A program made the translations under genes and the position numbers. 64,000 nucleotides of DNA from an uncultured bacterium (GTDB lineage Bacteria; Omnitrophota; Omnitrophia; Omnitrophales; JACQLI01): contig CAYJTB010000004.1 of the NCBI GenBank assembly GCA_964372875.1, forward strand, positions 4,343 through 68,342, given 5' to 3'. This document shows positions 23,645 to 61,315 of this stretch, one piece after another. Positions within the stretch are counted from its first letter, which is position 1; the number at the start of each line of letters is the position of its first letter. The notes below the pieces were generated by a model. That model was not told the origin of the DNA. It made no database searches and saw only the letters and a program-made list of their open reading frames with translations.

Positions 23645-24506
23645 CCTGGAACGAATTAAAAACGCAATCCGGAACCGGTATTTTTCAGAAAACCGGGTTG
23701 TCGTCATTGAACCGGCAAAAGGCTGGCGGATGTTGGACTTCAGAGAACTCTGGGCTTATCGGGAACTGTTTGGGGTATTGGCATTAAGAGACATCAAAAT
23801 CCGCTATAAGCAAACGGTCCTGGGTTGCGCCTGGGCCGTCATTCAACCGGTGATGGGAATGGTGGTGTTTTCTGTTATTTTCGGACATTGGGCCAAGATA
23901 CCCTCAGACGGTTACCCGTACCCAATTTTTGTTTATGCCGGACTTCTCCCTTGGAATTTTTTTGCGGCCACTCTGGCCGCAGCGGGAAATTCCGTGGTGA
24001 GTTCCTCCAATCTTATCACTAAAGTTTATTTCCCTCGCCTGATCGTTCCCATGGCTTCTTTAGGGACACCTCTTGTGGACTTTTTCATTTCCTCGTTTGT
24101 CATGCTGTCGCTCATGATATATTTCAAAGTCGGATTGCATATCAACCTTCTCGCGATTCCATTTTTGATTCTCGCCGTTATTTTTACCGCGCTCGGCGTG
24201 GGGACTTTGCTTTCGGCTTTAGTCGTTGCGTACCGCGACTTCCGATTCGTGATCCCCTTTCTTTTGCAAGTCTGGATGTATGCGACGCCCGTGATTTTTC
24301 CGATCGGGCTTGTGCCGAGCCAATGGCGGTGGGCGCTTTATCTCAATCCGATGGCCGGCATCATCGATGGGTTCAGGTCTGCATTTTTGGGAAAACCTTT
24401 TAATCTCGATGTCCTTGGGCTTTCCTTTTGTGCGGGCATCGTCATGTTTATTATTGGGGTAGCTTATTTCGAAAAAGTCGAGCGCCGTTTCGCGGATGTA
24501 ATTTGA
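23628..24506 (+). CDS. wzm: ABC-2 type polysaccharide export permease (Wzm/KpsM/TagG-like).
   Basis: Six TM helices and an ABC-2 permease signature. The cognate ATPase lies about 3.9 kb downstream, beyond an accessory insertion. Confidence 0.8.
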   Translation: MLKMVSLERIKNAIRNRYFSENRVVVIEPAKGWRMLDFRELWAYRELFGVLALRDIKIRYKQTVLGCAWAVIQPVMGMVVFSVIFGHWAKIPSDGYPYPIFVYAGLLPWNFFAATLAAAGNSVVSSSNLITKVYFPRLIVPMASLGTPLVDFFISSFVMLSLMIYFKVGLHINLLAIPFLILAVIFTALGVGTLLSALVVAYRDFRFVIPFLLQVWMYATPVIFPIGLVPSQWRWALYLNPMAGIIDGFRSAFLGKPFNLDVLGLSFCAGIVMFIIGVAYFEKVERRFADVI

Positions 24507-24507
24507 T
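24454..24507. repeat. A 54-bp perfect direct repeat, copy 1, covering the 3' end of wzm. Copy 2 is at 26077-26130.
   Basis: Exact identity (TTGGGGTAGCTTATTTCGAAAAAGTCGAGCGCCGTTTCGCGGATGTAATTTGAT) at both positions. Confidence 0.85.
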
Positions 24508-24544
24508 ACCCGCCAACGGTCACCGAAGAAAGCTGCTCTTTTGG

Positions 24545-25699
24545 GTGGAGAACTACCACAGTTTTTATGATCAATACCTCCAAGCGCATCCTGAATTAGA
24601 AAAAGAATCCTTTGAAGGGATCAGCCGGAAACTCTATGAACAAATGTTTTATCAAGCGGATAGTTACGCTTACGCCGCTCGCGAGCTCGGGTATGACGCC
24701 GGGCAAGTGATTCCCACATGCCGCTCCCTTCAGGAGCGATGGGGAGCCGAACACGGAATGTCGTTCCCCCCTCGCTGGTTGAGCTCGAGACCCTGGCGCT
24801 GGTGGTGGACACGGATCGCTGGAAAACCGCACCCCAAGGAGTCGTTCTATGAAAAAATTCTATTGAAACAACTCGAGGAATTTCGTCCCGATCTTCTCTA
24901 TATTTTCACCGGGGCGCCGATAACGTCCTCACTCCTTGCAAGGGCCCGAGAATTCTGCAGCCGCATTGTCATTCAGTGGACCTGTCTCATTGACCCGAGC
25001 CATCCTTTTCATTTGTACGACGAAGTGGTTTCGTGTGCACGAAATTTTGTCGAAGACTTTCGCAGCATGGAAGTTCCCGCGGCCTTCTGTCCCCACGCTT
25101 TTGACGAAAGGGTGCTGAATAAAATTCGAATACCTGCAAACAAAGAAGGAGCGGTGTTTGTAGGAAGCCTATCCGCACTGCACCGGCACCGGATTGAAAT
25201 TCTCGACCAACTTTCGAGGCAAATGGATTTTGACTTCTACGGCATGGGGGTCGAGTGCCTCCTCAAAGATTCGCCGTTGAGGAAATATTACCGGGGCCCG
25301 GTCTTCGGGCTTCCGATGTATGAGGTTTTCTCCCGCTGCCGGGTTGTAATCCATGCTTCAGGAGACGCCACCCTGCCCGCTGCCGGAGCCAAGAGACTTT
25401 TTGAAGCAACCGGAGCCGGCGCCTTTCTTCTGACCGAGGACCAGCTGGGGCTTGGAGAGTTCTTTGAAGTTGGAAAAGAAGTTGAGACCTTTTCAAGCGT
25501 GGAGGAATGCGCCGAAAAAGTTCGATATTTTCTATCACATGATTCAGCCAGAGAAGCAATCGCTAAAGCGGGTCAGACGCGGACACTTCGCGATCATACG
25601 TTTCGGGTTCGGATGCCGAAACTCATGGAGATTCTGGAGAATGTCATCGAAGGTAAGGGAGCTCGGGAGACCGTTGCAAGAAGAGCGAAACTCGTTTGA
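24545..25699 (+). CDS. CgeB-family (DUF3880 / Glyco_trans_1_2) glycosyltransferase-like protein. The start is uncertain and the gene may be 5'-truncated at the repeat junction.
   Basis: The C-terminal region (RYFLSHDSAREAIAKAGQTRTLRDHTFRVRMP) resembles CgeB-type GT domains and is paralogous to 52332..53360. No canonical start follows wzm in frame, and GTG at 24545 is the first candidate. Confidence 0.45.
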   Translation: MENYHSFYDQYLQAHPELEKESFEGISRKLYEQMFYQADSYAYAARELGYDAGQVIPTCRSLQERWGAEHGMSFPPRWLSSRPWRWWWTRIAGKPHPKESFYEKILLKQLEEFRPDLLYIFTGAPITSSLLARAREFCSRIVIQWTCLIDPSHPFHLYDEVVSCARNFVEDFRSMEVPAAFCPHAFDERVLNKIRIPANKEGAVFVGSLSALHRHRIEILDQLSRQMDFDFYGMGVECLLKDSPLRKYYRGPVFGLPMYEVFSRCRVVIHASGDATLPAAGAKRLFEATGAGAFLLTEDQLGLGEFFEVGKEVETFSSVEECAEKVRYFLSHDSAREAIAKAGQTRTLRDHTFRVRMPKLMEILENVIEGKGARETVARRAKLV

Positions 25700-26085
25700 G
25701 TGGATTAACGGTGAAAAAGAAATCGACAGGCCGTGAACAAGCTCAGGGATTCAACTTCTTCAAAAAAGCGGGGCCTTCTTCATCCTCCTGGGAGAATCAA
25801 GTTCGCAGCCTCTGGAGGGAGTATCTCGTTGAGACGTTGGGGAGACCCGAGGAGAATGCCCGCGAGAGGATCGAGCAAGAGATTTCAGCTTCTATCTATC
25901 ACGAACTTCTCTCCGGATTGGAAACGGCGGGATGGAAATTTGAGGGAAGCGTGGCCATTGACATCGGCTGCGGCACGGGCGGCCTTGTGGGTGAACTCGT
26001 AAAACGATCGGCCCATGCGGTGGGAATCGAACCCGGCACGGCTTGGCGCGAAGCGCCGAGCCAACGGCTGTTATCCTTGGGGTAG
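25696..26085 (+). pseudogene. 3'-truncated class I SAM-dependent methyltransferase fragment.
   Basis: Only motif I (IDIGCGTGGLVGELV) and motif post-I are present. The ORF runs into direct-repeat copy 2 and stops after 129 aa. Confidence 0.5.
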
Positions 26086-26130
26086 CTTATTTCGAAAAAG
26101 TCGAGCGCCGTTTCGCGGATGTAATTTGAT
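26077..26130. repeat. A 54-bp perfect direct repeat, copy 2, duplicating the wzm 3' end.
   Basis: Identical to 24454-24507. Confidence 0.85.
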
Positions 26131-26214: not shown

Positions 26215-26679
26215 TCAATTTGAACCATGGCCGGAAGGGGTTCCCAGATTTTTCAAATACCGGGTCAAATAAAATTGCTGAATGCGTCTGAGAGGGGCCG
26301 TATCTTGATAACGACGAAAAGTATCAACAAAGACCTGCTGTTCCAGGAGAGAATCGCGGCAGTAGACGAGGATGCCCTGCGTGAAAGTTTGATATTGAAG
26401 AAGAGGCGGTGCTTGGTTGAGGAGGACCAAATCGATCCGATTACTTTGAAAAGCACTCATGAGGCAGCCTGTGAGATGAGCTTCGTAGCCGTAAGGATAT
26501 TTTTTCTCTCCGGCTTTTTCCTCATTAATAAAGACACCCATGTCAATATCGCTGAGGGGTGTTGTCCGGCCTTGGACAGAGGATCCGAAGAGGTAGGCGA
26601 ACGAGACCTCCTCCCGCTTTTCACAGAAGGCGACAAGCTTTTGTTTGAGTGTTTCAAGATCCAAAATCATAGCAGGCAA
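26215..26679 (-). CDS. Nucleotidyltransferase-domain protein (MNT / Pol-beta superfamily), solitary.
   Basis: LFGSSVQGRTTPLSDIDMGVF (GS...DxD) minimal nucleotidyltransferase motif. It lies on the opposite strand to the surrounding locus and has no adjacent HEPN partner. Confidence 0.65.
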   Translation of the reverse strand: MPAMILDLETLKQKLVAFCEKREEVSFAYLFGSSVQGRTTPLSDIDMGVFINEEKAGEKKYPYGYEAHLTGCLMSAFQSNRIDLVLLNQAPPLLQYQTFTQGILVYCRDSLLEQQVFVDTFRRYQDTAPLRRIQQFYLTRYLKNLGTPSGHGSN

Positions 26680-28363: not shown

Positions 28364-29641
28364 ATGGACGTCATCAAAGTCGAAAGTCTTTCCAAGCAGT
28401 ATACGATCGGGGCATCGCAAAAATACCACAGCTTTCGGGAAATGCTGGCGGAGCAATTCAAAGCGCCGCTTCGTTGGATCAAGCATCGGGGGCAGCGTCG
28501 AGGGAACCAACAAAAGATTTGGGCTTTGAAGGACGTTTCCTTCGAAGTCCAACAAGGGGAAGTTGTCGGCGTAATTGGCCGGAACGGCTCCGGGAAAAGC
28601 ACGCTTCTCAAGATTCTTTCCCGGATTACAGATCCCACAAGGGGCCGTGCTGAAATCCACGGCCGGGTGGCAAGTCTCTTGGAAGTCGGAACAGGTTTTC
28701 ACCCTGAGCTTACAGGAAGAGAAAATATTTATCTGAACGGAACCATCCTTGGAATGAGACGGTGGGAGATCACGAAAAAGTTCGACGAGATCGTGGCCTT
28801 CGCCGAGATCGAAAAATTCATCGATACTCCCGTGAAGCGCTACTCGAGCGGCATGTACGTGCGTTTAGCGTTCGCCGTCGCGGCTCATCTCGAGCCAGAA
28901 ATTTTAATTGTCGATGAAGTTCTTGCGGTGGGGGATGTTGCGTTTCAAAAAAAATGTCTGGGGAAAATGGGTGATGTAGCCAAGCAGGGTAGGACGGTGC
29001 TTTTTGTTAGCCACAATATGGATGCCATTATTACCTTGTGTCAACGAGCCATTCTTTTAGTAGATGGCCATATTGGAATGGAAGGCGTTGTTGATAAAAC
29101 AGTGACGCATTTTTTGTCCCTCCTTCGTATGCAACGAAGCCAAATCCGCGGGGAAGTATCACTTACTGATCACCCCGGCCGCTTAAAAAAAACAGAACAA
29201 TTGGTTCGAATTACATACTGCAAAATATCGGATCACTTTGGTAAGCCGGAAACATTTTTTAAATCAGGAGAAGAAATTCAGATTGTCGTTGGCTATGAAA
29301 GTAAGGCTACAAAAGGAAATTTGCCCCTAGCGTTTTTTGTTATTTTCAATGACATGATGGGAAGGCGTATTTTTTGTTGTTCGAACGAATTCGTGCAGCG
29401 TTCTTTTAACACCTTGCATCCAAAAGGGGAGGTTAAGTGTGTGATTCCCAAGCTCCCTCTTGCGCCCGGCAATTACACTATTACTATTTCATGTAAGGTG
29501 GGGCCGACTTGGTCCGATGGAGTCTACGAAGCTGTGGAAGTGGAAGTGCTCAGCGGAGATTTCTTTGGAACAGGGTATTCCCCTCAAAGGGAATTTGGTA
29601 GTTCTTTGGTTCAACACCACTGGCTTCCAAATTCAAAATGA
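28364..29641 (+). CDS. wzt: Polysaccharide ABC exporter ATP-binding protein (Wzt/KpsT/TagH-like) with a C-terminal glycan-binding extension.
   Basis: Walker A GRNGSGKST, ABC signature YSSGMYVRL and Walker B ILIVDEVLAVGD. An extra roughly 190 aa of beta-rich C-terminus is typical of O-PS-terminus-binding Wzt domains. Confidence 0.85.
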   Translation: MDVIKVESLSKQYTIGASQKYHSFREMLAEQFKAPLRWIKHRGQRRGNQQKIWALKDVSFEVQQGEVVGVIGRNGSGKSTLLKILSRITDPTRGRAEIHGRVASLLEVGTGFHPELTGRENIYLNGTILGMRRWEITKKFDEIVAFAEIEKFIDTPVKRYSSGMYVRLAFAVAAHLEPEILIVDEVLAVGDVAFQKKCLGKMGDVAKQGRTVLFVSHNMDAIITLCQRAILLVDGHIGMEGVVDKTVTHFLSLLRMQRSQIRGEVSLTDHPGRLKKTEQLVRITYCKISDHFGKPETFFKSGEEIQIVVGYESKATKGNLPLAFFVIFNDMMGRRIFCCSNEFVQRSFNTLHPKGEVKCVIPKLPLAPGNYTITISCKVGPTWSDGVYEAVEVEVLSGDFFGTGYSPQREFGSSLVQHHWLPNSK

Positions 29642-42317: not shown

Positions 42318-43072
42318 AACTTTACACCTTCTACACGTCTTCTCATCGAGTTCTAAAAGATGAATGGTTCCTTCCCGGATTGCAGGATGCCTATACGTTG
42401 AAAATTATCGAATGCAACCAAGATTGCCCCACCGGAGAATTTAGAAGCCAGGGGTGGAGCGCCACCATGCTTCGAAAATGCGATTTGATTCTCGAAGCCA
42501 TAGAAGAAAACCAGGGTGAAATCTTTATTTATTCTGATACCGACGTCCAATTTTTTAGACCTACAGAGAGCGCCATTCTTAAGTTAATGTGGGGAAAAGA
42601 TATTATTTTTCAACGTGATACTCCGAATGGAAAATTATGTTGTGGTTTTTTAGCGTGCCGAGCCAATCAGAAGACATTCAAATTATGGCAGGATGCCAAA
42701 CAAATAGTCTCAAAACAATCGGATCAGGATAAAGGAGATCAAGAGATTATCAATTCATTGCTGCTGAATAACAAAATTTCTGGATTGACACAACGAATAG
42801 GAGCCCGACTTGTGAGAATTTTTAAAAAAAAAGATCCATGGTTGGCTCACCGCTTATTTCCTCCCCAGAATAAATATGGAATCAAATGGGGCTATTTACC
42901 CGTGGAATTTTTTGGAGCGGGGACTTTGACCGGAAGACAGTGGGAACCGGGAATGTATCTGGAAATCCCAAGAAATATTATTCTTCATCACGCAAATTGG
43001 ACGGTAGGTCTAGAAAATAAAATCGCACAGCTTAAATTTGTGCGCGATGTCGTAGAAAGCAGGACTCTATGA
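42314..43072 (+). CDS. Hypothetical protein, possibly a GT-A-like nucleotide-diphospho-sugar transferase.
   Basis: A DXD-like motif (IYSDTDVQF). The TTG start overlaps the asnB-like stop (cTTGAa). Confidence 0.35.
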   Translation: MKLYTFYTSSHRVLKDEWFLPGLQDAYTLKIIECNQDCPTGEFRSQGWSATMLRKCDLILEAIEENQGEIFIYSDTDVQFFRPTESAILKLMWGKDIIFQRDTPNGKLCCGFLACRANQKTFKLWQDAKQIVSKQSDQDKGDQEIINSLLLNNKISGLTQRIGARLVRIFKKKDPWLAHRLFPPQNKYGIKWGYLPVEFFGAGTLTGRQWEPGMYLEIPRNIILHHANWTVGLENKIAQLKFVRDVVESRTL

Positions 43073-44013
43073 CGCATTGTCCAAGACTCGATGAATTGCC
43101 TTCGCCTCCTGCTGGGAAAACCGGCTGGCCCTGGACAGAAGAAAGCCCGCAACATTCGAATACCGCACCTGGCATCGAACCTTGGCCTCGCATCAGTATC
43201 GTAACCCCTTCTTACAATCAAGGAAAATTTATCGAAGAAACCATCCGCTCTGTCCTTCTCCAGGGTTATCCCAATTTGGAGTATTTTGTTATTGACGGTG
43301 GTAGCACAGACAATTCTATAGAGATTATCAGAAAATATGAGAAATGGCTGACTTACTGGGTGAGCGAGCCAGATAGGGGACAAGCCCATGCTGTTAATAA
43401 GGGATTGGAACGCGCTACCAGCGAAATAGCAGCCTATCTCAATAGCGACGATGTCTATCTTAGAGGATGCTTATCCCATGTCGGAGGAGCTTATCTCAAG
43501 ACCCGCTTTGATGTTCTGGTCGGCCGAAGGTGGTTGCCTCGAAAAAGTCTTTTTCTCCTCCGAAAGGGATGGTGGGAGACACAAATGAAGTCTTTCGTCT
43601 ACCCGTTTATTTTTACGAACGCCGGTCCATATGAACTTCCTCAGGAATGTATTTTTTGGAGCCATAAACAGTTTGGTAAAGCCAGATTCAATGAGGACTA
43701 TCATTGCTGTCTTGACGTCTGGTGGTTCTCTCACATTTACTCGGGAGCTCTTGTGGTGCATACGACAAAACAGTTGGGTTTTTTTAGAGATTACCCAGAA
43801 AATAAATCCAATCGGCTTAAAGAGCGGGTGAGGAAGGAAGCGCAAATGCTCAAGTTAGAAATGAAACCCTTCGAAGCTCGTATGACGGACGAAGCTAAAA
43901 AGGAAATTCTGTCCTCTTTTTATCGCGCGTCCTTCAAAACGCTTTTTCAACGCTTGTTAATACTGCATAATGAATTCTTCTTCCAGTACCAGCACCCAAA
44001 ATATTTGGATTAA
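43069..44013 (+). CDS. Glycosyltransferase family 2.
   Basis: ISIVTPSYNQGKFIEETIRSVLLQ and DGGSTD motifs typical of GT2. Confidence 0.75.
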   Translation: MTHCPRLDELPSPPAGKTGWPWTEESPQHSNTAPGIEPWPRISIVTPSYNQGKFIEETIRSVLLQGYPNLEYFVIDGGSTDNSIEIIRKYEKWLTYWVSEPDRGQAHAVNKGLERATSEIAAYLNSDDVYLRGCLSHVGGAYLKTRFDVLVGRRWLPRKSLFLLRKGWWETQMKSFVYPFIFTNAGPYELPQECIFWSHKQFGKARFNEDYHCCLDVWWFSHIYSGALVVHTTKQLGFFRDYPENKSNRLKERVRKEAQMLKLEMKPFEARMTDEAKKEILSSFYRASFKTLFQRLLILHNEFFFQYQHPKYLD

Positions 44014-44019: not shown

Positions 44020-44175
44020 GTTACTATCATTAAAATTATCCAAGTCCCATTTTGTTTTTATCCCGACGCGGTCGGGGGAACGGAAGTTTATGCCGAAGCG
44101 CTCGCTAAAAATTTGAAAAAGCTGAGCATAGAATCCGTAGTTTGCGAGCCTGCGGAGAGAGAAGAAGTGATATAA
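44020..44175 (+). pseudogene. Orphan 5' fragment of a GT4 gene (about 50 codons), duplicating the start of the GT4 gene at 44934.
   Basis: It translates to IIKIIQVPFCFYPDAVGGTEVYAEALAKNLKKLSIESVVCEPAERE, against the intact gene's FKTLQVPFCFYPDAVGGTEVYVEALAQGLKKFGVESVICAPAEKE. The first roughly 70 nt are near-identical and similarity then decays. Confidence 0.6.
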
Positions 44176-44933: not shown

Positions 44934-46310
44934 TTGTTCAAAACTCTCCAAGTCCCATTTTGTTTTTACCCCGACGCGGTCGGGGGAACGGAAGTTTATG
45001 TTGAAGCACTCGCTCAAGGTTTAAAAAAATTTGGAGTGGAGTCCGTGATATGCGCGCCGGCTGAAAAGGAGAGCGCCTATTCTCACAAAGGTCTCAAGGT
45101 TCGGCGCTTTGCTGTTCCTTCTGCGGTAAGTGATCTTCGGGAGCTTTACGGTGAAGGGAATTTCGAAGCAGCCCGGGCATTCTCCAAGATTTTGGATGAG
45201 GAAAAACCGGACCTTGTTCATCTTCACGCCTTCACGCGCGGCGTTTCTCTTCGTTTGGTACGCGAAGCAAAATCCAGAGGAATTCCTATTATCTTTACAT
45301 ATCACACGCCGACCGTGAGTTGCCAGCGGGGAACCTTGGTGCGTTGGGGTAAAGAAATCTGTGACGGCGTTCTTCGGCAGCGTCTCTGTTCTCAATGCAC
45401 GCTTCATGGCTTGGGAATGAATCGATTGGCTGCTCAAGCAATAGGAAGTCTTCCGTCCGTCGTCGGCCGGCTCATGGGACGAATGGGTCTCGCTGGAGGA
45501 GCTTGGACGGCCCTCCGAATGTCAGAACTTGTCAGACTCCGCCACCAAACACTTCATCGGTTTCTAGGAGAAGTTGACTCCATTGTTGCAACAGCTTATT
45601 GGGTCAGGGATCTTCTGGTTCGGAATCACGTATCCCCTCACAAGATCGCCGTCTCTCGGTATGGATTGTGTCAACCCTCCGCGCTCTCTACGAACTGCTC
45701 AAAATCGGAAGTCACGAGCTCACGACTAAGATTAAAAGTTGCTTTTATGGGTCGCATGGATAAGACCAAAGGACTTCATATTTTGATTCAGGCTGTGAAA
45801 TCGTCTCTTCGCCTTTCCGTCACCTTGGATCTTTATGGGGTTGCGCAAGGAGAATTCGGCCATGGCTATGAACGGGAGATGCATGCTTTGGCCGGAGAGG
45901 ATAGACGAATCACTTTCCATCCCTCCCTCCATGGCGAAGAAATTATATCTACATTGAAAAATTTCGATGTCCTCGCCGTCCCCTCTCAATGGTTGGAGAC
46001 AGGACCTATGGTGGTTCTGGAGGCATTCGCAGCTGGAATTCCCGTCGTGGGGTCGAATTTAGGCGGGATTTCAGAATTTGTTAAACATGAAACCAACGGC
46101 CTTTTGGTGGAAGAATTTCGATCAGCAAAAACATGGGCCGAATCCTTTCAGCGGCTTGTTGACAGCCCGGATTTGGTGGCCCGTTTGTCACGTGGGATAA
46201 AAGCTCCGAGAACCGTAGAAGAAATTGCCCAAGATATAATGTCTTTATATGAAACCCAACTTAGAAACAAAAACCCAAAGATTAAAGCCGCCCATGATGC
46301 CGACACTTAG
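44934..46310 (+). CDS. Glycosyltransferase family 4.
   Basis: GT-B fold with a C-terminal motif (ETGPMVVLEAFAAGIPVVGS). Confidence 0.75.
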   Translation: MFKTLQVPFCFYPDAVGGTEVYVEALAQGLKKFGVESVICAPAEKESAYSHKGLKVRRFAVPSAVSDLRELYGEGNFEAARAFSKILDEEKPDLVHLHAFTRGVSLRLVREAKSRGIPIIFTYHTPTVSCQRGTLVRWGKEICDGVLRQRLCSQCTLHGLGMNRLAAQAIGSLPSVVGRLMGRMGLAGGAWTALRMSELVRLRHQTLHRFLGEVDSIVATAYWVRDLLVRNHVSPHKIAVSRYGLCQPSALSTNCSKSEVTSSRLRLKVAFMGRMDKTKGLHILIQAVKSSLRLSVTLDLYGVAQGEFGHGYEREMHALAGEDRRITFHPSLHGEEIISTLKNFDVLAVPSQWLETGPMVVLEAFAAGIPVVGSNLGGISEFVKHETNGLLVEEFRSAKTWAESFQRLVDSPDLVARLSRGIKAPRTVEEIAQDIMSLYETQLRNKNPKIKAAHDADT

Positions 46311-47144: not shown

Positions 47145-48296
47145 TTGAATAAGGTTATCTACATACAGTATACCAATCCAGCCGGATACCCTTCGCTGGA
47201 ACACAGCTCCCGGATTCTGGCGGACCGCGGCTGGCAGGTACGCTTCTTAGGCACGGGTGCCTTTGGCGCGAATAGATTGCAATTTCAGGAACATCCCAGG
47301 ATTTCGGTCAAACTTCTTCCCTTCTGCCGCGAAGGATGGAAACAAAAACTTCACTATCTCTGGTTTTGTGTCTGGACGATTACTTGGTTTCTATTCTGGC
47401 GCCCCCAATGGATCTACGCTTCGGACCTTTGGTCATGCCCCCTTGCTTGGTTCCTGAGCCTCCTAGGAGCACGAATCATTTATCACGAACATGATTCACC
47501 CGGAAGTTCTGGCGGAAGATTATGGTTTAACCTATGTCATTGGTGTCGGAGAAAAATCGCTCGTCAAGCCAATGTAGTCGTCATTCCAAGTAAAGAACGA
47601 GCGGACAGATTTTTAAATGATACTCAGACTCATCGTATGATCCATTGCATTTGGAACTGCCCAAGCAAAAGAGAAATGTCCACCTTGCGTCAATCTCTCG
47701 CCAAAGAAAATGGCGATCCCACCCTCAAAATTTATTATCACGGGAGTCTCAATCCTTATCTGCTTCCGTTAACGTTGCTAAAGGCGCTTGCATTGCTGGA
47801 GGGGCAGGTTCGGTTATTGGCTATCGGTTACGAAACAGTCGGTTCTCAAGGTTATCGAAATATTTTTGAACAAAGAGCCAAGGAAATAGGTGTAAAAAAA
47901 TATGTATCTCTCTTTCCGCCGAAGCCTCGGTCCGAGTTGTTTCATTTAGCGGCACAATGTGAAGTAGGACTGGCTCTCTTTCCGATGCACTCGGACGATT
48001 TCAATTTTCAACACATGGTAGGGGCTTCCAACAAACCTTTCGATTACCTAGCGAACGGCCTCGCCGTTTTGGTTTCTGATCTGCAAGATTGGAAGGAGAT
48101 GTATGTGGAGCCGGGGTATGGATTGGCTTGTGACCCCAGTGACCCCCAAAGTATTGCTGCCCGTCTTCAGTGGTTTTTAGACCACCGTGAAGAAACGCAA
48201 TCTATGGGCGAGCGCGGCCGGCAGCGGATTTTATCCGAGTGGAATTATGAACGGCAGTTTGCGCCGGTTTTGAAACAGCTACTGGTCCACCGATAA
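47145..48296 (+). CDS. Glycosyltransferase family 4.
   Basis: GT-B fold with N-terminal WQVRFLG and a C-terminal nucleotide-sugar-binding domain. Confidence 0.7.
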   Translation: MNKVIYIQYTNPAGYPSLEHSSRILADRGWQVRFLGTGAFGANRLQFQEHPRISVKLLPFCREGWKQKLHYLWFCVWTITWFLFWRPQWIYASDLWSCPLAWFLSLLGARIIYHEHDSPGSSGGRLWFNLCHWCRRKIARQANVVVIPSKERADRFLNDTQTHRMIHCIWNCPSKREMSTLRQSLAKENGDPTLKIYYHGSLNPYLLPLTLLKALALLEGQVRLLAIGYETVGSQGYRNIFEQRAKEIGVKKYVSLFPPKPRSELFHLAAQCEVGLALFPMHSDDFNFQHMVGASNKPFDYLANGLAVLVSDLQDWKEMYVEPGYGLACDPSDPQSIAARLQWFLDHREETQSMGERGRQRILSEWNYERQFAPVLKQLLVHR

Positions 48297-48321: not shown

Positions 48322-49617
48322 CTAAAGAAGATAGTACCAGGCGGGGATCATCCGGATTTTCCCGGAAATCTGGTAGCGATCCTTTGAAACCAGGATTTTT
48401 GATTTGCTCTTTAGAGAAGTCTTCTGAAAAGCTTCCATTTCCCGCGGTGGAATCGAATCCGTATAGCAAGTCTGGACCAAATGAGTCCCCTGTTTAAGAA
48501 AAGCGAAATCAATCTCGGGATCTTCGGTGTACCCCAGCCCCTTTTCATCCTTGAGGGCCTGGAAAACCAGGTTTTCAATCAGGAAGCCGCTGTCCCGGTC
48601 GACATTCCATGCCGCCGCATTTCGCAGACCGATATCAGCGACATAAATCTTCTTGCGAATCGTTTCTCTAAGTCTGGGTTTGAGGGAAAAGGAAAAGGGA
48701 GGAAGAAAGGAAAAAAGACCCGACCTTTCAAAGTAAGTCAGATATTCTTTCAAGGTATCGACGGCGATGTTCAAGGTGCCGGCGAGGGAGCGATAGCTCA
48801 GGGCTCTTCCCATGTTCGAGATCAAATATAAGGCCAGGGCTTCCAGTTTAAGGGGTTGTCTAATTTCGTACCTTCTAATCAGGTCACGGTAGAGAATGTC
48901 TTGGAAATATTGTCGAAGCAGGTCTTCCTTTAAGGCGGGGTCCTTGGTGAGAACGATACCTGGAAACCCTCCCTCCTTGAGGTATTTCTCGAAATAATGT
49001 CTCAACTCCGCTCTTTGATCGATCAGGGCTTCGTAAGAGCCCCTCTCGGGCACTCTGCCCGTCTTAAAGAGGAGATACTCCCGGAAATCAAGGGGTTTGA
49101 TTTCGAAGGAAAGATTTCTTCCCGTGAGGAGGGTGGCCAGCTCAGTGGATTGCACCGCAGAAGAGGAGCCTGTCAGGATCATTTGAAGCGGCCGCTTCTG
49201 TTCATAAACTTTATTTACCCATTTTTCCCAACCCTTTACCTCCTGGATTTCATCCAGGAAGAGAAACATCTCCCCCTTGGGATTCGTGATTTTCTGGAAG
49301 GTCTCAAGGAGTTGGTCGAGAAACGAAGACCGGTCCATTTCGGGAACGAACAAATTGTTTTCGAAATTGACGAAGGCGACGTTCTGCGGAGGGACATGAT
49401 GGTTCAAAAGATGTTGAATCAGTTGGTAGAGAAGGGTGCTTTTTCCGGAACGCCTGACGCCATAGAGGATTTTCACCTCTCTGACGGAGAAGGACTTGTA
49501 AATCTTGGAGATGTATTCCTCTCGCAGGATTCCCACGTGGGTTTTGAACTCTTTTCCGTGCCACCAGGGATTGGCTTGATGGAGAGACTCCTCGATGGCG
49601 GGATTCATGTCAACCAT
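48322..49617 (-). CDS. AAA+ ATPase with a C-terminal DUF4143 domain.
   Basis: Walker A GVRRSGKST, Walker B FLFLDEIQ and a DUF4143-like C-terminal region. It is on the opposite strand to the surrounding glycosyltransferase genes. Confidence 0.7.
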   Translation of the reverse strand: MVDMNPAIEESLHQANPWWHGKEFKTHVGILREEYISKIYKSFSVREVKILYGVRRSGKSTLLYQLIQHLLNHHVPPQNVAFVNFENNLFVPEMDRSSFLDQLLETFQKITNPKGEMFLFLDEIQEVKGWEKWVNKVYEQKRPLQMILTGSSSAVQSTELATLLTGRNLSFEIKPLDFREYLLFKTGRVPERGSYEALIDQRAELRHYFEKYLKEGGFPGIVLTKDPALKEDLLRQYFQDILYRDLIRRYEIRQPLKLEALALYLISNMGRALSYRSLAGTLNIAVDTLKEYLTYFERSGLFSFLPPFSFSLKPRLRETIRKKIYVADIGLRNAAAWNVDRDSGFLIENLVFQALKDEKGLGYTEDPEIDFAFLKQGTHLVQTCYTDSIPPREMEAFQKTSLKSKSKILVSKDRYQISGKIRMIPAWYYLL

Positions 49618-49775: not shown

Positions 49776-49866
49776 TGGCGAAGGCGAGGGAGGTCGCCAA
49801 CGGATCCTGGGCGAATGGAATTATGAACGGCAGTTTGCGCCGGTATTGGAGTTATTAAATGGTTAA
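49776..49866 (+). pseudogene. Orphan 3' fragment duplicating the end of the GT4 gene 47145..48296.
   Basis: It translates to GEGEGGRQRILGEWNYERQFAPVLELLNG* against the intact GERGRQRILSEWNYERQFAPVLKQLLVHR*. There is a 29-nt identical core, and its stop overlaps the next gene's ATG. Confidence 0.6.
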
Positions 49867-56868: not shown

Positions 56869-56876
56869 GGTATTCC

Positions 56877-58079
56877 ATGAAAGTACTTCACGTTATTCCG
56901 GCAGTGGCGGCTTCCTACGGAGGACCGAGTCAGGCGATTATAGAAATCTGCCATGCCTCCCAAAAGGCGGGTATCACGGTAGAAATCGCGACAACAAATG
57001 CCGACGGAAAAGGAAAGCCTAAGATCTCCAACGAGATCTTCCTCCACAAAAATATTCCAACCCATTTCTTTCCCAGGACCTTCAACTCTGAATACAAATT
57101 TTCATGGCGTATGACGAAATGGTTAGAAAAAAACGTTAGAAAATTCGACCTTCTTCATATCCACTCTATTTTTTGCTATTCCACCACCATCGCAGCCCAT
57201 TTCGCCGGAAAATTTAATGTGCCCTATATTATTCGCCCCGCCGGAGTCCTCGACCCTTGGCCCATGAGGCAGCATCGGCTGAAAAAACAGTTTTACTTGG
57301 ATTGGCTGGAACGCAGCAACCTAAACCACGCCGCCGCCATTCACTGCACCTCGGAAAAAGAGAGAGAGTCAGTGGTCCGGTTTGGTTTTGAAGCGCAGCC
57401 GGTCGTTCTTTCTTTGAGCCTTGAGATCGACGAAAAATTTAGAAATCTCGAAAAGGGCCTGTTCCGGAAAAGACACTCCAAATTCGGAAATAAAAAACTG
57501 ATTGTTTTCTTATCGCGGATTCATAAGAAGAAGGGAATTGAACTTCTGATTGATTCATTGTCTCGCATTCGAGGCTCGCTGCCGGATTTCCTTCTGGTGA
57601 TTGCAGGGAACGGAAGGGATCATTACGAAAGGCTTATCAAGAAAAAAATAAAAGAATCCAAGTTGGAAGCCCAAACGTTTTTCACGGGATTTCTGCAAGA
57701 TACGGCAAAATACCAGCTTTTGAAAGATGCCGATCTTTTCGTCCTTCCTTCTTATCAGGAAAATTTCGGTTTTTCCGTAATTGAAGCAATGCAAATGGGG
57801 GTGCCGGTGATTGTTTCTTGCCACGTAGATATTTCAAAAGAAATAGAATCTTTTAAGGCCGGCCGAGCTATCCCTTGCGATGCCGGCACGCTCGGCCAGA
57901 CGATCCATGATTTGCTTAAGGATGACTCAGAAAGATGCCAAATGGGGGAAAATGCAAAACGGCTCGTGGCGGAAAAATTCGGTCGGGAAAAGATGACCGA
58001 AGGTCTCCTTCTTTTATATCAGTCAATTCTCGAAAAAAGAAAACCCGCTCTGTGCGCACCCTCTCAACCATTGTCCTGA
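56877..58079 (+). CDS. Glycosyltransferase family 4.
   Basis: An N-terminal GGP motif (YGGPSQ) and a C-terminal ENFGFSVIEAMQMGVPVIVS. Confidence 0.75.
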   Translation: MKVLHVIPAVAASYGGPSQAIIEICHASQKAGITVEIATTNADGKGKPKISNEIFLHKNIPTHFFPRTFNSEYKFSWRMTKWLEKNVRKFDLLHIHSIFCYSTTIAAHFAGKFNVPYIIRPAGVLDPWPMRQHRLKKQFYLDWLERSNLNHAAAIHCTSEKERESVVRFGFEAQPVVLSLSLEIDEKFRNLEKGLFRKRHSKFGNKKLIVFLSRIHKKKGIELLIDSLSRIRGSLPDFLLVIAGNGRDHYERLIKKKIKESKLEAQTFFTGFLQDTAKYQLLKDADLFVLPSYQENFGFSVIEAMQMGVPVIVSCHVDISKEIESFKAGRAIPCDAGTLGQTIHDLLKDDSERCQMGENAKRLVAEKFGREKMTEGLLLLYQSILEKRKPALCAPSQPLS

Positions 58080-58903
58080 CTTATAACGAAGAGAAGAATC
58101 TCGAAACCTGTTTGAGAAGTCTTCAATCTTTGGATGCAGAGGTCTTCATTGTTGACTCAGGCAGTAGTGACCGAACCCTTGAAATCGCGAGCCGCTACAC
58201 GGAAAAAATTTATACCCACCCTTTCGAAACCCATGCCAAACAATGGAATTGGGCGTTTCAAAATCTTCCTCTCTCGGGCGATTGGATTTTAGCTTTGGAT
58301 GCCGATCAAAGGTTGACTCCCGAACTTCAAGAGGAAATTCAACAAGATGTTTTAAGGGGCGCTCCCTCTCAAATCGGCGGTTTCTATATCAAGCGCCGCC
58401 AAATTTTTCGAAATCGCTGGATCCGTCACGGGAGCTATTATCCTAAATACCTTCTCAAATTATTTCGCAAAGGAGAAGGCCATTCTGATGAAAATGAATT
58501 ATTGGATTTTCGGTTTTATGTGCGCAGAAAAACAACTAAACTTCGATGCGACTTAATTGAGGACAACCAAAAAGACAACGACCTTAACATTTGGATGGCT
58601 AAACACATCCGCTTTGCCGAGATTCAGGCGCGTGAAGAATTCTTACGCCGGAAAAATGGGATAGCCTGGAGTATCAAACCCGCTTTTATGGGGTCACCCG
58701 ATCAAAGAACCTTACTGCTTAAGGGCCTTTGGCACCGGCTGCCCCTTTATGTGAGGCCTTTTCTATATTTTTTTTACCGTTATTTTCTAAGGTTCGGATT
58801 CCTCGACGGCAAAGAAGGTTTTATTTTCCATTTCTTGCAAGGATTGTGGTATCGACTACTCATAGATATTCATCTGGATGAATTGAGGAAAAAAAACGAA
58901 TGA
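58052..58903 (+). CDS. Glycosyltransferase family 2.
   Basis: A GTG start giving (M)RTLSTIVLTYNEEKNL and a DSGSSD motif. It overlaps the upstream GT4 gene by 28 nt. Confidence 0.65.
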   Translation: MRTLSTIVLTYNEEKNLETCLRSLQSLDAEVFIVDSGSSDRTLEIASRYTEKIYTHPFETHAKQWNWAFQNLPLSGDWILALDADQRLTPELQEEIQQDVLRGAPSQIGGFYIKRRQIFRNRWIRHGSYYPKYLLKLFRKGEGHSDENELLDFRFYVRRKTTKLRCDLIEDNQKDNDLNIWMAKHIRFAEIQAREEFLRRKNGIAWSIKPAFMGSPDQRTLLLKGLWHRLPLYVRPFLYFFYRYFLRFGFLDGKEGFIFHFLQGLWYRLLIDIHLDELRKKNE

Positions 58904-58970
58904 TCATCCTCGGAATCAACGCCTATCACGGCGATGCAGCGATAATTCCGAAGAGTGGTTATTGACGTTT
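58902..58970 (+). pseudogene. Orphan 5' fragment (22 codons) duplicating the start of the carbamoyltransferase gene at 59555.
   Basis: MIILGINAYHGDAAIIPKSGY* against the intact MIILGINAYHGDASAALIVDG. Its ATG overlaps the GT2 stop (aATGAtc) as an operon-coupled start would. Confidence 0.6.
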
Positions 58971-59237: not shown

Positions 59238-59491
59238 GAACGCTTGAAAAGCTGCCGAACTTGCTCAGTCCCCCGAACGGGAACTGCCTGGTCTTTTTCT
59301 TGCGCTACAATGTGGTCAAGTCCCTCCAACGCCGTCTTTGAATAAAGAGGTTCCGGGGTAATGGGGATGATATGAATAATATTGTGGTCGACAACCACTT
59401 GGACGTAGCGCTCTGGGCCGAAGTTCACTTTCTCTGCAACTTCTTTAGGGATATTGAGTTGATTCCGACCATTGATTCGGGTAATGTTCAT
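59234..59491 (-). CDS. AbrB/MazE/SpoVT-family antitoxin-like DNA-binding protein.
   Basis: MNITRINGRNQLNIPKEVAEKVNF is a swapped-hairpin beta-barrel motif. The start is taken at the internal Met (59491). Confidence 0.5.
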   Translation of the reverse strand: MNITRINGRNQLNIPKEVAEKVNFGPERYVQVVVDHNIIHIIPITPEPLYSKTALEGLDHIVAQEKDQAVPVRGTEQVRQLFKRS

Positions 59492-59554
59492 CTTGGTCTC
59501 CTTGAGTAAAGGTAGCATAAGTACGTAATAAATGCAAATACTTATTAGATATCA

Positions 59555-61315
59555 ATGATTATCCTCGGAATTAATGCGTATCACGGTGATGCATCGGCGG
59601 CGCTCATTGTCGACGGAAAGCTCGTCTGTGCGATTGAGGAAGAGCGGCTTAATAGGATCAAACATTCGGCGGGGCTTCCAAGCCAAGCCGCGCGTGAAGT
59701 CTTGGCTCAAGCCGGAATTTCTGCTGATGATATTAACTTCATTTCTACTTCAAGAAATCCGGCCGCGAATCTTTTTCCTAAACTCGGGTTTATTTTAAAG
59801 ACGAAACCCCCGGTTTCATTTTTAAAGGATCGTCTTAGCGTTGCAGCTCATTCCAGAAATTTTCTGGGAAATCCGGCTGTCCTTTTAGAAGAAAATAAGA
59901 CTTTGAAGACAAAAGGCATCGCGGTCGAACATCATCTCTCGCACGCGGCAAGCGCCTTTTACCCGTCCGGCTTCGAGCGCGCGGCACTTCTTACGGTTGA
60001 CGGTTTCGGCGATTTCTCAAGCACGATGTTTGGCGAGGGAGTCGGAAACCGCATCAAAGTATTAAAACGCGTCCTTTTTCCGCATTCCTTAGGCGTCCTT
60101 TACACCGCCGCGACACAATTTTTAGGGTTTCCTAAATACGGTGATGAATATAAGGTGATGGGGCTTGCAGGCTTCGGTGAGCCTAGATTTTTAAAAGAAT
60201 TTCGCGAGATGATCCATTTAGAATCCGACGGGACCTTTAAATTAAATCCCGGCTATTTTCTTCATCCCAAAGGGCAATCGGATATGACGTGGTCGGAAGG
60301 GGAACCCATCTTAGGATCTCTTTATTCCGAAAAATGGATTTCCATTTTTGGTCCCCCGCGCCACCCCGAAGAAAAATTAAGCCGGAGAGACAAAGATATC
60401 GCTGCTTCAACGCAAGCTATTTTTGAAGAAGTCTATTTCCATCTGATGAATCATCTCTATGAAAAAACAAAACTTGAAAATCTTTGCCTTGCAGGCGGAT
60501 GTGCGATGAACAGTCTCGCCAATGGAAAGATTTTTGATAAAACTTCTTTCAGGAAAGTTTACATCCAGGCCGCTGCAGGTGATGCCGGCACGGCCATCGG
60601 GAGTGCATTTTATGTAGCGCATCACCGGTTAAACCAGCCGCGCAATTTTGTGATGGATCACGCCTATTGGGGACCTGAATTTTCAAAAAGTCAGGTCGAG
60701 CAGGAATTGAAATTAAAAAGAGAAGAACTCAAAAAAACGGGATGTGATATCCGCGAACTGGATGAAAATTTACTCTACCGAGAAACTGCAAAAGTTATTG
60801 CCGGCGGAAAAATCGTAGGATGGTTTCAAGGCAAGATGGAATGGGGAGCTCGCGCGCTTGGAAACCGAAGTATTCTCGTGGATCCGCGCCATCCAGGAAT
60901 GAAAGATATTCTTAATCAAAGAATCAAGCACCGGGAAGGATTTCGTCCCTTTGCCCCCTCTGTTTTAGAAGAGAAGGCAAGCGAGTGGTTTGAAATGAAA
61001 ACCGGATCCTCGCCTTTTATGAATCTTGTTTTTCCAGTCCTGCCGGAAAAAAAAGAAAGAATTCCTGCAGTCACGCATGTAGACGGAACGGCAAGAATTC
61101 ATACGGTCACAGAAAAGACCAACGCCTCTTATGCTCGCTTGATCCGCGAGTTTGAAAAATTAACGGGCGTTCCTATGCTTTTAAACACCTCTTTTAATGA
61201 AAATGAGCCTATTGTTTGCTTACCCCGCGAGGCCCTTGAATGTTTTTTGAGGACGCAAATGGATGTCCTCGTACTGGGCCCTTATTTTATTGAGAAGAGA
61301 AGCACATCAACCTAA
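59555..61315 (+). CDS. Carbamoyltransferase of the NodU/CmcH family.
   Basis: ILGINAYHGDASAAL N-terminus, an HHLSHAASAF motif and a C-terminal YrdC-like/Kae1-like domain organisation. About 586 aa. Confidence 0.85.
   Translation: MIILGINAYHGDASAALIVDGKLVCAIEEERLNRIKHSAGLPSQAAREVLAQAGISADDINFISTSRNPAANLFPKLGFILKTKPPVSFLKDRLSVAAHSRNFLGNPAVLLEENKTLKTKGIAVEHHLSHAASAFYPSGFERAALLTVDGFGDFSSTMFGEGVGNRIKVLKRVLFPHSLGVLYTAATQFLGFPKYGDEYKVMGLAGFGEPRFLKEFREMIHLESDGTFKLNPGYFLHPKGQSDMTWSEGEPILGSLYSEKWISIFGPPRHPEEKLSRRDKDIAASTQAIFEEVYFHLMNHLYEKTKLENLCLAGGCAMNSLANGKIFDKTSFRKVYIQAAAGDAGTAIGSAFYVAHHRLNQPRNFVMDHAYWGPEFSKSQVEQELKLKREELKKTGCDIRELDENLLYRETAKVIAGGKIVGWFQGKMEWGARALGNRSILVDPRHPGMKDILNQRIKHREGFRPFAPSVLEEKASEWFEMKTGSSPFMNLVFPVLPEKKERIPAVTHVDGTARIHTVTEKTNASYARLIREFEKLTGVPMLLNTSFNENEPIVCLPREALECFLRTQMDVLVLGPYFIEKRSTST

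Follow-up and report, generated by a model that had tools for sequence, protein, structure and literature searches.

The closest known counterparts of the locus described here are homology-facilitated illegitimate recombination (HFIR) and terminal displacement as it occurs in Rhs, CDI and T6SS systems. Integrative islands and CIMEs, for example the dusA-specific islands, take over the terminus of a tRNA or protein gene, and they need a tyrosine or serine integrase together with a fixed att core. Integrons accumulate small cassettes in arrays, promoter-bearing or promoterless and often TA pairs, and integron TA modules may stabilise their neighbours. For O-antigen clusters, we know of no description of a regular pattern in which a duplicated gene terminus brackets a cassette. 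Gene remnants do occur in these clusters at recombination junctions (Reeves et al. 2013, PMC3715488). HFIR is described by de Vries & Wackernagel (2002), Prudhomme et al. (2002) and Meier & Wackernagel (2003), as cited in PMC5361080, and also in E. coli conjugation (PMC3240628). The Rhs, CDI and T6SS loci are known for terminal displacement and the orphan arrays that result from it (Jackson et al. 2009; Poole et al. 2011; Kirchberger et al. 2017, PMC5361080), and the last of these papers draws the comparison with integrons.

The locus lies in a 64-kb stretch of DNA (the window; coordinates throughout are positions in it), for which an earlier note had claimed that short, imperfect copies of gene termini flank four inserted blocks in a cell-surface glycan gene cluster. 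These copies are real: the four, here R1-R4, are the strongest direct repeats of the whole window at 118, 100, 66 and 52 bits, and repeats in the shuffled window peak at 36.5 bits (20 shuffles), so that the duplications are genuine and far above chance. In R1, the functional 3' end of wzm (24448-24507) matches an orphan at 26071-26130 in 58 of 60 bases, with a longest exact run of 54 nt. R2 pairs an orphan (44032-44156) with the 5' end of a GT4 glycosyltransferase gene (44940-45064) over 125 nt at 80.8% identity, and stretches to about 141 nt at 75%. R3 pairs the 3' end of a GT4 gene (48207-48272) with an orphan (49783-49848) over 66 nt at 81.8% identity, the stop codon being reached in both copies, and R4 an orphan (58899-58941) with a carbamoyltransferase 5' end (59554-59596) over 43 nt at 86%. 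Exact runs measure 29-54 nt in R1-R3, and none in R4 exceeds 11 nt. At the cassette edges, neither inverted repeats nor significant structure were found. The fragment length of 40-90 nt given earlier fails for R2 (125-141 nt), and the earlier observation as a whole is partly confirmed. The region around R1 contains:

23628..24506, + strand: wzm, ABC-2 permease (Pfam ABC2_membrane); its last 59 nt are the functional R1 copy
24500..25699, + strand: R1 cargo, glycosyltransferase Glyco_trans_1_2 (Pfam, translation)
25696..26070, + strand: R1 cargo, SAM methyltransferase reduced to an N-terminal stump (Pfam Methyltransf_23 matches residues 76-114 only)
26071..26130, + strand: R1 orphan, last 19 codons and stop of wzm (pairwise identity, tblastn)
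26215..26679, - strand: solitary MntA-like nucleotidyltransferase (Pfam Polbeta, NCBIfam MntA)
26806-27444, + strand: AbiEi (PADLOC, 179 bits)
27469-28359, + strand: AbiEii (PADLOC, 215 bits)
28364..29641, + strand: wzt, ABC ATPase with Wzt_C domain (Pfam; start from sequence)

The probable TTG start of the glycosyltransferase overlaps the wzm stop as TTGA. The methyltransferase stump matches a 345-aa paralogue over residues 104-169 of the latter, stops just past motif I and adjoins the wzm orphan directly; this junction is an illegitimate join at which the methyltransferase gene was cut in half. R1 brackets the glycosyltransferase and the truncated methyltransferase, and not the AbiE/MNT block as had been proposed. 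AbiEi and AbiEii follow the wzm orphan on its right and precede wzt, with no terminus duplication of their own, the nucleotidyltransferase has no HEPN partner and sits outside the repeat, and no wzt or wzm fragments bracketing the AbiE block were found. The statement that every accessory cassette is bracketed therefore does not survive, since this block is unbracketed and the R1 cargo consists of glycan genes. TA/defence cargo is found in three of the four window repeats (MNT/HEPN, DUF4143 ATPase and RelE-like/AbrB), which are arranged as follows:

43069..44013, + strand: GT2 glycosyltransferase, native upstream neighbour of the R2 orphan (Pfam, sequence)
44026..44166, + strand: R2 orphan, first ~47 codons of GT4, in frame and stop-terminated
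44201-44536, + strand: R2 cargo, MNT (Pfam; PADLOC PDC-S09)
44511-44921, + strand: R2 cargo, HEPN (Pfam)
44934..46310, + strand: GT4 glycosyltransferase (Pfam); 5' end 44934-45074 is the functional R2 copy
47145..48296, + strand: GT4 glycosyltransferase (Pfam); 3' end 48207-48296 is the functional R3 copy
48322..49617, - strand: R3 cargo, AAA_14 + DUF4143 ATPase (Pfam; PADLOC, 324 bits)
49783..49866, + strand: R3 orphan, last 27 codons and stop of GT4 (sequence comparison)
57935..58903, + strand: GT2 glycosyltransferase (Pfam); true start probably GTG near 58052
58899..58941, + strand: R4 orphan, first 14 codons of carbamoyltransferase (sequence comparison)
58959-59237, - strand: R4 cargo, RelE/ParE-like ORF of 92 aa
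59234-59518, - strand: R4 cargo, AbrB/MazE-type antitoxin
59555..61315, + strand: carbamoyltransferase (Pfam); 5' end 59554-59596 is the functional R4 copy

The orphans retain native operon junctions. The R2 orphan follows its GT2 neighbour after 12 nt, the stop of the R3 orphan overlaps the ATG of the following gene (49859), and the ATG of the R4 orphan overlaps the GT2 stop (ATGA); in the cassette-free syntenic loci L081 and L082, the corresponding genes abut by 3-4 nt or overlap. The R3 ATPase, a PADLOC defence candidate (PDC-S01), has an upstream region of 165 nt (49618-49782). The two R4 cargo ORFs overlap by 4 nt, and their designation as a RelE/AbrB pair needs softening: the RelE-like ORF has no match in any HMM library searched, and the AbrB match is weak.

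Two Logan assemblies made independently from the same strain, L083 (99.98% identical) and L084 (100%), contain R4 in full, the orphan of R3 and, together with the cassette, the functional R3 end. The R2 architecture is present in L122, about 92% identical, whose contig starts and ends within the shared stretch. Its orphan has a frameshift. Just past the conserved stretch, this orphan bears functional-allele bases, a sign of gene conversion between the copies. L125 (~92%) and L126/L127 (~80%) share the R4 architecture with the same orphan/cassette junction. An assembly artefact from mixed strains might be suspected from the metagenome-type contig that is our source and from Logan contigs ending near the repeats, but k-mer artefacts give exact overlaps whereas the repeats are 81-86% identical, and the junctions recur in five independent assemblies (four other samples). 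Since same-strain and relative assemblies both reproduce the repeats, they are not assembly artefacts, and we give this explanation practically no chance. L125 and L126 also carry a DUF4143 cassette that is 95.4% identical between them, while its flanks match at 80-82%. On the right, the tract of high identity stops at the carbamoyltransferase ATG, and the cassette sits exactly at this ATG with AATGA on both sides; window positions 59551-59558 are its empty site. The difference between cassette and flank identity argues that cassettes are horizontally exchanged. For the four window events, no donor or empty site was found, and neither a homologous crossover nor microhomology at illegitimate joins was visible.

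In three other phyla, carbamoyltransferase genes have the same architecture at the 5' end, and elsewhere in glycan loci it surrounds DUF4143 ATPases. DUF4143 cassettes are flanked by repeats of at least 50 bits at 6 of 26 distinct loci, compared to 0 of 75 control genes. One locus, L026, has an 85-nt orphan with a cargo of GT2, radical SAM and DUF218, L079 has two stacked orphans, L089 has a GT2 3' end in three copies with MNT and DUF4143 cargo, and the terminus-duplicate pattern is also present in L069, L085 and L101. In favour of the earlier note, DUF4143 cassettes and at least one MNT cassette (L089) are bracketed in this way in glycan loci of other organisms. However, the same scars hold ordinary glycan genes in L026, L069 and L079, so the process is one of general recombination in glycan operons, and the notion of a mechanism dedicated to TA/defence cassettes has to be abandoned.

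We consider it probable that recombination by "terminus displacement" left the four repeats as scars. The process would be of a known kind, here in a setting that recurs unusually often; a published proposal applies the same model to T6SS immunity arrays and Rhs loci (PMC5361080). An incoming piece of DNA from a diverged relative would carry a cassette directly adjoining a conserved glycan gene. On one side there would be homologous recombination inside that gene, and on the other an illegitimate join to its resident counterpart, a few dozen bases into it. The resident terminus would remain as a short orphan in its native operon junction, and the interrupted gene would stay whole because the incoming DNA supplies its terminus. 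Later, gene conversion centred on the most conserved motif could pass sequence between the copies, and the arrangement could be inherited as a whole or transferred by ordinary recombination. The scars comprise the repeats, the native junctions and, at one junction, a truncated gene, from which we infer one homologous and one illegitimate end. TA/defence cargo might be over-represented because repeat-flanked inserts tend to be lost by inter-repeat recombination, a loss that addictive modules resist. Capture of a cassette with a gene terminus from another lineage, as proposed earlier, is supported by the native junctions, the R2 profile score, the third-position bias and the cut methyltransferase, and the earlier interpretation as a whole is partly supported.

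The differences between the copies bear directly on their origin. Against an HMM of the GT4 N-terminus, the R2 orphan peptide scores 64.8 bits and the live copy 67.2 bits; in two sets of 1000 neutral-decay simulations, one set per substitution level, none reached 64.8 bits, and stop codons were present in 52-71% of the runs. The R2 orphan diverged while still part of a working gene, and a family-quality peptide despite 25% nucleotide divergence is incompatible with in-place decay. Differences between copies are distributed 12/5/27 over the codon positions, a third-position excess (p=1.3e-4), while those in other loci are mixed (15/6/14). The identity said to fall off from the junction is significantly uneven only in R2 (p=0.005) and R3 (p=0.016), not in R4, and in R1 the differences are at the edge only. 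The high-identity stretches coincide with the family-conserved motifs GGTEVY and EWNYE, whose nucleotide conservation persists even among homologues that are 58% identical in protein. That the two copies stem from different lineages is strongly supported for R2 and suggestive for R3 and R4; the R1 copies are nearly identical and therefore uninformative. Base composition does not mark the cassettes as foreign. Alternatively, a break-repair or template-switch insertion could have copied 40-140 nt of the target in place and left the untranslated copy to decay. The near-identity of R1, the frameshift in the L122 orphan and the decayed look of the L079 orphans, with mostly non-synonymous change, would all be expected, and synonymous/non-synonymous counts alone (R3 p=0.05, R4 p=0.17; model of in-place duplication with half live-copy synonymous changes) do not reject this half-and-half model. 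Yet the R2 simulations, the third-position bias and the strongly non-uniform identity of R2 and R3 oppose it, and target duplications so variable in length fit no known insertion process, which makes in-place duplication quite unlikely.

It is also conceivable, though unlikely, that the cassettes are mobile without a recombinase, looping out by host recombination between the flanking repeats and re-entering, by a Campbell-type single crossover that regenerates them, any genome endowed with the matching conserved gene terminus, which each cassette would bring along as a portable homology arm. The repeats are short, always contain the gene's most conserved motif and include the long exact runs of R1-R3; R3 is divergent, identical and again divergent, as from a crossover inside the conserved stretch, and both L122 contig ends fall within the shared stretch. 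The bracketing of DUF4143 genes (6/26 loci versus 0/75 controls) and the cassette that is 95% identical between lineages with ~80% identical flanks fit as well. However, circular forms were not observed, the conserved stretches can also be put down to gene conversion and to conservation of the motif at codon level, the exact run in R4 (at most 11 nt) is too short for efficient RecA-mediated crossover, the gene truncated at the R1 junction points to an illegitimate join, and the origin of the first duplication is left unaccounted for. The exact cores of 29-54 nt in R1-R3, and an outcome like that of islands replacing a tRNA or protein gene end, could instead reflect CIME-like relics of site-specific integration, with the repeats as attL and attR and an integrase lost or acting in trans. 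This is very improbable given four unrelated targets in one operon, at 5' and 3' ends alike, allele-like substitutions between repeat copies, cassette edges devoid of inverted repeats or significant structure, and the R4 core of at most 11 nt. As the earlier note had stated, no integrase or transposase is present in any of the window ORFs scanned; its analogy to tRNA-3'-end replacement accordingly holds for the outcome and not for the mechanism. For R3 only, a putative nuclease could cut cassette-free alleles and homing-like repair copy the cassette, as DUF4143 has been placed in the PD-(D/E)XK superfamily (PMC3424549). Repeat-bracketing is enriched around DUF4143 genes, and the L125/L126 cassette combines exact ATG placement, AATGA on both sides and 95% identity across diverged lineages. 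Nevertheless, we give homing very little credence, since duplications are no product of it, the other three blocks have the same architecture without a nuclease candidate, and the PADLOC entry denotes a defence candidate rather than a mobile element. Terminus displacement remains our preferred reading.

Like integron arrays, the locus accumulates small cassettes, promoter-bearing or promoterless and often TA pairs, and its TA modules too may stabilise their neighbours, but it does so without attC-like palindromes or IntI, and its repeats are coding sequence of the neighbouring genes. As in islands and CIMEs, a gene-terminus direct repeat brackets the insert and the interrupted gene is intact, whereas here there is no integrase, the targets vary and the repeats show allele-like differences. 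Glycan gene fragments mark past polysaccharide-locus rearrangements in O-antigen clusters too, but in most published cases deletion has left pieces of wzy or IS (PMC3715488). HFIR and our proposal share an end anchored by homology, another joined without it, and capture of foreign DNA without its own recombinase, here with a gene truncated at R1. HFIR is experimental and yields mostly insertion-deletions, while the process here is read from scars alone, and the illegitimate join would lie inside the donor-supplied segment, leaving a duplicated terminus. Nor would simple HFIR lead one to expect that every orphan is short (4-141 nt) and includes the conserved motif. At Rhs, CDI and T6SS loci, as here, the incoming module brings a new conserved gene part, the old terminus is kept as an orphan, and repeated rounds stack orphans (here L079, L089 and L125/L126). 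What is displaced at those loci is a variable toxin tip together with the immunity gene, serving a competitive function, whereas here it is a 4-141-nt stub from the 5' or 3' end of a biosynthetic gene, and the cargo consists of TA/defence cassettes or glycan genes.

A single long plus-strand polysaccharide operon spans about 18.8 kb to past 63.9 kb of the window. It starts with a NusG-like gene, and Pfam scans place downstream AsnB-type amidotransferases, epimerases, many GT2 and GT4 glycosyltransferases, wzm, wzt, NeuB, methyltransferases, a Wzy-like protein, and a carbamoyltransferase. Four non-glycan blocks are embedded in this operon:

26.2-28.4 kb: MntA-like gene (minus strand) and AbiEi/AbiEii
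44.2-44.9 kb: MNT/HEPN pair
48.3-49.6 kb, minus strand: AAA_14 + DUF4143 ATPase
58.96-59.52 kb, minus strand: RelE-like/AbrB pair

Searches for type II/IV/VII toxin-antitoxin (TA) and defence partners matched profiles for AbiEi/AbiEii, MNT with HEPN, and DUF4143 (= PDC-S01); PADLOC recognised AbiEi and AbiEii, filing the ATPase as candidate PDC-S01 and the MNT genes as PDC-S09. The 92-aa ‘RelE’ ORF matched nothing in any profile library searched, and we take it, by eye, to resemble the RelE/ParE family; the AbrB profile score lies below its cut-off. Elsewhere in the operon, an FkbM-type methyltransferase at 46249-47141 occupies two ORFs, 46249-46926 and 46836-47141, that overlap and lie in different frames; the split probably reflects either pseudogene formation by frameshift or an error in sequencing.

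The best four direct repeats across the whole 64 kb (118, 100, 66, and 52 bits, compared with at most 36.5 bits in 20 shuffles) are termini of glycan genes, each present as a live copy within a whole gene and as a stranded orphan:

R1: live wzm 3' end 24448-24507, orphan 26071-26130; brackets a glycosyltransferase and a methyltransferase start
R2: orphan GT4 5' end 44026-44166, live 44934-45074; brackets MNT/HEPN
R3: live GT4 3' end 48207-48296, orphan 49783-49866; brackets the DUF4143 ATPase
R4: orphan carbamoyltransferase 5' end 58899-58941, live 59554-59596; brackets RelE-like/AbrB

These repeats vary in length (43-141 nt), are 75-97% identical, and contain longest exact runs of 54, 31, 29, and 11 nt in R1 to R4, respectively. 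Similarity in R2-R4 stops abruptly at the repeat edge, and neither the cassettes nor the crossover points stand out in GC and GC3 profiles. An earlier note had described all four accessory cassettes as bracketed by duplicated gene ends. This holds for MNT/HEPN, DUF4143, and RelE-like/AbrB; the AbiE/MNT block lies outside the R1 repeat, to the right of its orphan, and neither a wzt nor a wzm fragment was found beside that block. What R1 does bracket is a glycosyltransferase translationally coupled to wzm via TTGA, followed by a methyltransferase cut down to its first ~125 codons: it ends right after motif I and precisely at the orphan start. The MntA-like gene at 26215-26679 lacks a HEPN partner; the site expected for it, downstream on the minus strand, holds the R1 orphan and the truncated methyltransferase, and the R1 event may have deleted the toxin gene. 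The fifth-best direct repeat (19873-19956 and 40740-40823; 86 nt, 73% identical) is ordinary paralogy, lying inside the paralogous AsnB-type amidotransferase genes 19519-21546 and 40389-42317.

The duplications are genuine, as their junctions recur in independent assemblies, and assembly error is not supported as their source. Logan supplies two assemblies, built from other runs, that match window 49728-61513 at 99.98% and 46872-49459 at 100%; between them they include R4, the R3 orphan, and the live R3 end with its cassette. The window lineage and its ~92% relative occur in samples ERR3478686, ERR4904390, and SRR22387937. A 909-nt contig from another sample (L122), 91.9% identical to window 44077-44987, carries the R2 orphan, MNT/HEPN, and the GT4 start; R2 is older than a split of about 8%. 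The R4 orphan, the RelE-like/AbrB pair, and the carbamoyltransferase are all present in L125 (about 92% in the carbamoyltransferase) and in L126/L127 (about 80%; these two are independent assemblies of groundwater data). The orphan/cassette junction sequence is identical between these contigs and the window, which indicates that R4 arose in a single old event and was inherited by lineages now about 20% apart. These relatives were reached solely via the short cassette proteins. Exact-protein look-ups of two window proteins returned no match; the best GT4 homologue reaches 61% identity, and the best carbamoyltransferase among species representatives 56%. A further contig listed with the DUF4143 cluster, L128, was discarded since its DNA is unrelated.

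Which copy is native can be read from the flanks. The outer side of every orphan is an operon-style junction: the R4 orphan ATG is overlapped by the GT2 stop (ATGA), the R3 orphan stop overlaps the ATG of the next gene, and the R2 orphan begins 12 nt after GT2 with GGAAGG upstream. The live copies adjoin the cassettes. In two distant, cassette-free syntenic loci (L081 and L082; GT4 58% identical) the same gene pairs lie 3-4 nt apart or overlap, and the inserts are foreign to the operon, being missing from these otherwise syntenic loci. The GT2 ORF listed from 57935 overlaps the upstream GT4 3' end in another frame (57935-58079); comparison with L125 suggests that its true start is a GTG near 58052.

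The earlier note had further proposed that each cassette arrived together with a gene terminus from another lineage, and the divergence between copies bears this out most clearly for R2. Differences between copies number 12, 5, and 27 at first, second, and third codon positions (p=1.3e-4); of the changed codons, 21 are synonymous and 14 non-synonymous. Against an HMM of 118 GT4 N-termini from which the orphan was left out, the R2 orphan peptide scores 64.8 bits and the live copy 67.2. Simulated neutral decay at 35 or 17 substitutions averaged 24 and 45 bits, 52-71% of the simulations gained stop codons, and 0 of 1000 reached 64.8 bits at either level, which argues strongly that the R2 orphan diverged within a working gene of another lineage. 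The synonymous excess in R3 and R4 is suggestive of copies from different lineages; a conservative half-and-half model is not rejected there on counts alone (p=0.05 and 0.17). The R1 copies are near-identical and thus uninformative on lineage origin.

Identity along the duplicated fragments, said to decay away from the junction, is indeed uneven in R2 (3 mismatches in the first 61 nt versus 21 in the other 64, p=0.005) and R3 (11 versus 1, p=0.016); the same test found no unevenness in R4. However, breakpoints drawn from these gradients need caution, because the stretches of high identity correspond to the GGTEVY and EWNYE motifs, which even L081 and L082 conserve at nucleotide level, and because the copies exchange sequence by gene conversion. 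The latter is indicated by the L122 orphan: just beyond the GGTEVY stretch it reads GTTGAGGCACTCGCT, as the live allele does, and the window orphan reads GCCGAAGCGCTCGCT. The L122 orphan is frameshifted, as expected of a dead fragment.

L125 and L126 carry an extra 1.28-kb DUF4143 cassette precisely at the carbamoyltransferase ATG, the boundaries reading GATATCAATGA/CCCTG...AAGAAATGA/TTATCC:

L125, reverse-complemented, 2477-3757: extra DUF4143 cassette, AATGA on either side
L126, reverse-complemented, 2181-3460: extra DUF4143 cassette, AATGA on either side

The window represents the empty site, uninterrupted and with one AATGA (59551-59558), and the L125 junction shows AATGA microhomology. 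Identity between L125 and L126 is 95.4% in the cassette, 82.3% in the TA segment to its left, and 79.9% in the carbamoyltransferase to its right; the high-identity tract ends on the right at the cassette/ATG boundary and fades on the left within AbrB. These contrasts are direct evidence of recent horizontal movement of the cassette into a conserved gene start, leaving only a 4-5-nt stub. L125 (reverse-complemented, 150-912) also has an additional methyltransferase gene between GT4 and GT2 relative to the window, preceded by a 46-nt internal GT2 fragment (KYARFAKFQTKEEML), a further recombination remnant. L125 1-139 (reverse-complemented) is the upstream GT4 3' end and not a GT2 5' orphan.

Similar scars occur in other genomes. 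Among 80 loci fetched around carbamoyltransferase homologues, three more have an orphaned carbamoyltransferase 5' end upstream of inserted cargo, and a survey of 37 metagenomic loci with homologues of the ATPase (26 distinct and usable) found direct repeats of at least 50 bits bracketing the DUF4143 gene in 6/26, compared with 0/75 for the carbamoyltransferase control (Fisher p=2e-4). Loci from both surveys are:

L026 (Nitrospirae): 85-nt orphan, 97.6% identical; cargo GT2 + radical SAM + DUF218
L079 (Chloroflexota): stacked orphans, 111 + 49 nt; cargo a methyltransferase, then a DUF5674 pair
L069 (Nostoc): 31-nt decayed orphan; cargo an acyltransferase
L085/L087: epimerase 3' end, 98 nt, duplicated around two DUF4143 genes, beside rmlA
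L089: GT2 3' end/next-gene start junction in three copies; cargo an MNT pair, then a DUF4143 gene
L101: membrane protein 5' end, 37 nt
L109: DUF4143 + PhyH + FkbM block ahead of wzt

Orphans are stacked in L079 (two), in L089 (three copies), and in L125/L126 (orphan plus ATGA stub). Based on these surveys, the bracketing architecture is widespread, frequently in glycan loci, with both defence-type and ordinary glycan genes as cargo. The suggestion that the process specifically shuffles TA and defence cassettes is therefore too narrow: DUF4143 cargo recurs in other genomes, with MNT cargo in L089, but so does ordinary glycan cargo (L026, L069, L079).

Other repeats met in these surveys are of different kinds. 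Those in L009 and L018 were rejected as gene termini, being low-complexity or REP-like. In L018 (5339-13507), repeats of 25-180 nt are numerous among small TA-like ORFs (DUF4258/MqsA-like) beside a Y1 (IS200-like) transposase, and are probably REP-type elements with no relation to terminus duplication. In L094 (890-5230) and L110 (1571-6787), small-ORF cassettes, a DUF4143 ATPase among them, form arrays with an intergenic repeat of 31-66 nt between cassettes. This repeat is neither a gene terminus nor attC-like; its core is GGGGTCAGGGCTACAC in L094, where the repeat ends in TTGACA, and GGAATCAGGTTCACATC in L110. In L013, a 31-35-nt repeat (3570-3648 and 5855-5889) lies immediately before the carbamoyltransferase start and recurs upstream of the next-but-one gene; it may represent a regulatory or ribosome-binding region common to both.

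The scars are most simply accounted for by recombination that joined one end by homology and the other illegitimately. On this account the illegitimate join landed within a stretch also supplied by the donor, so that the gene stayed whole and the resident terminus was orphaned. Signs of an illegitimate join are the cut after motif I of the R1 methyltransferase and the abrupt end of homology in R2-R4. Because the operon is compact, joins further out would wreck a neighbouring gene, which would account for the range of events observed, and short, diverged repeats would persist because recombination between long or identical ones would remove the insert. Cargo that is addictive should be less prone to such loss, which would enrich TA and defence cassettes without a dedicated mechanism. 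In the chief rival reading, also compatible with these data, recombination acts on the short terminus itself, the cassette looping out and re-entering by a single crossover. Extended further, TA and defence-candidate cassettes, notably the DUF4143 ATPase (PDC-S01) and MNT/HEPN, would form a recombinase-free mobile class spreading between the polysaccharide operons of distant bacteria, with the conserved terminus as a portable homology arm, host recombination looping the repeat-flanked unit out and back in, and the PD-(D/E)XK-type ATPase domain perhaps promoting its own insertion; we consider this extension unlikely.

A site-specific integrative element (island or CIME) is not supported: the ORFs scanned in the 64-kb window include no transposase, integrase, or recombinase, in agreement with the earlier note. 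As for an att core common to both repeats, the exact run of R4 (11 nt) is too short for one, and the runs of R1-R3 coincide with conserved motifs. Transposon target-site duplication is not supported, given the varying length and identity of the repeats as well as the missing transposase. Nor are integron cassettes, since the cassette boundaries have no inverted repeats, the R3 spacer fold has a z-score of -1.4, and Rfam gave no match; the motif GGCCGAGCGAAGCGAGGTCCC occurs once in the window. A diversity-generating retroelement (TR/VR), which would require adenine-specific changes, is rejected: mismatches occur at all four bases, and no reverse transcriptase was found.

Few parts of bacterial genomes vary as much as surface-polysaccharide loci, and there is little documentation of how new genes enter tight operons without breaking them; the scars provide a readable record. 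Insertions can survive when a replacement terminus comes with the incoming DNA, and conserved gene ends serve as landing pads, the carbamoyltransferase 5' end having been used in at least seven lineages from several phyla. Defence-candidate and addiction cassettes repeatedly settle in glycan operons, where they could make linked alleles harder to replace. The scar pattern can be searched computationally in any genome, so that homology-anchored illegitimate capture becomes countable.

A literature search combining homology-facilitated illegitimate recombination (HFIR) with toxin-antitoxin returned nothing relevant, and the papers returned for TA pairs with flanking direct repeats do not deal with this architecture in their titles and abstracts. 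Processes of this kind are already known: HFIR has been described experimentally and is the basis of the displacement model (PMC3240628), and the same model was put forward for T6SS immunity arrays and Rhs C-terminal displacement (PMC5361080). Two aspects are new. One is where the scars sit: at the ends of ordinary glycan genes, whose conserved motifs serve repeatedly as landing pads in different phyla. The other is DUF4143 as a recurring cargo, joined in L089 by MNT cargo.
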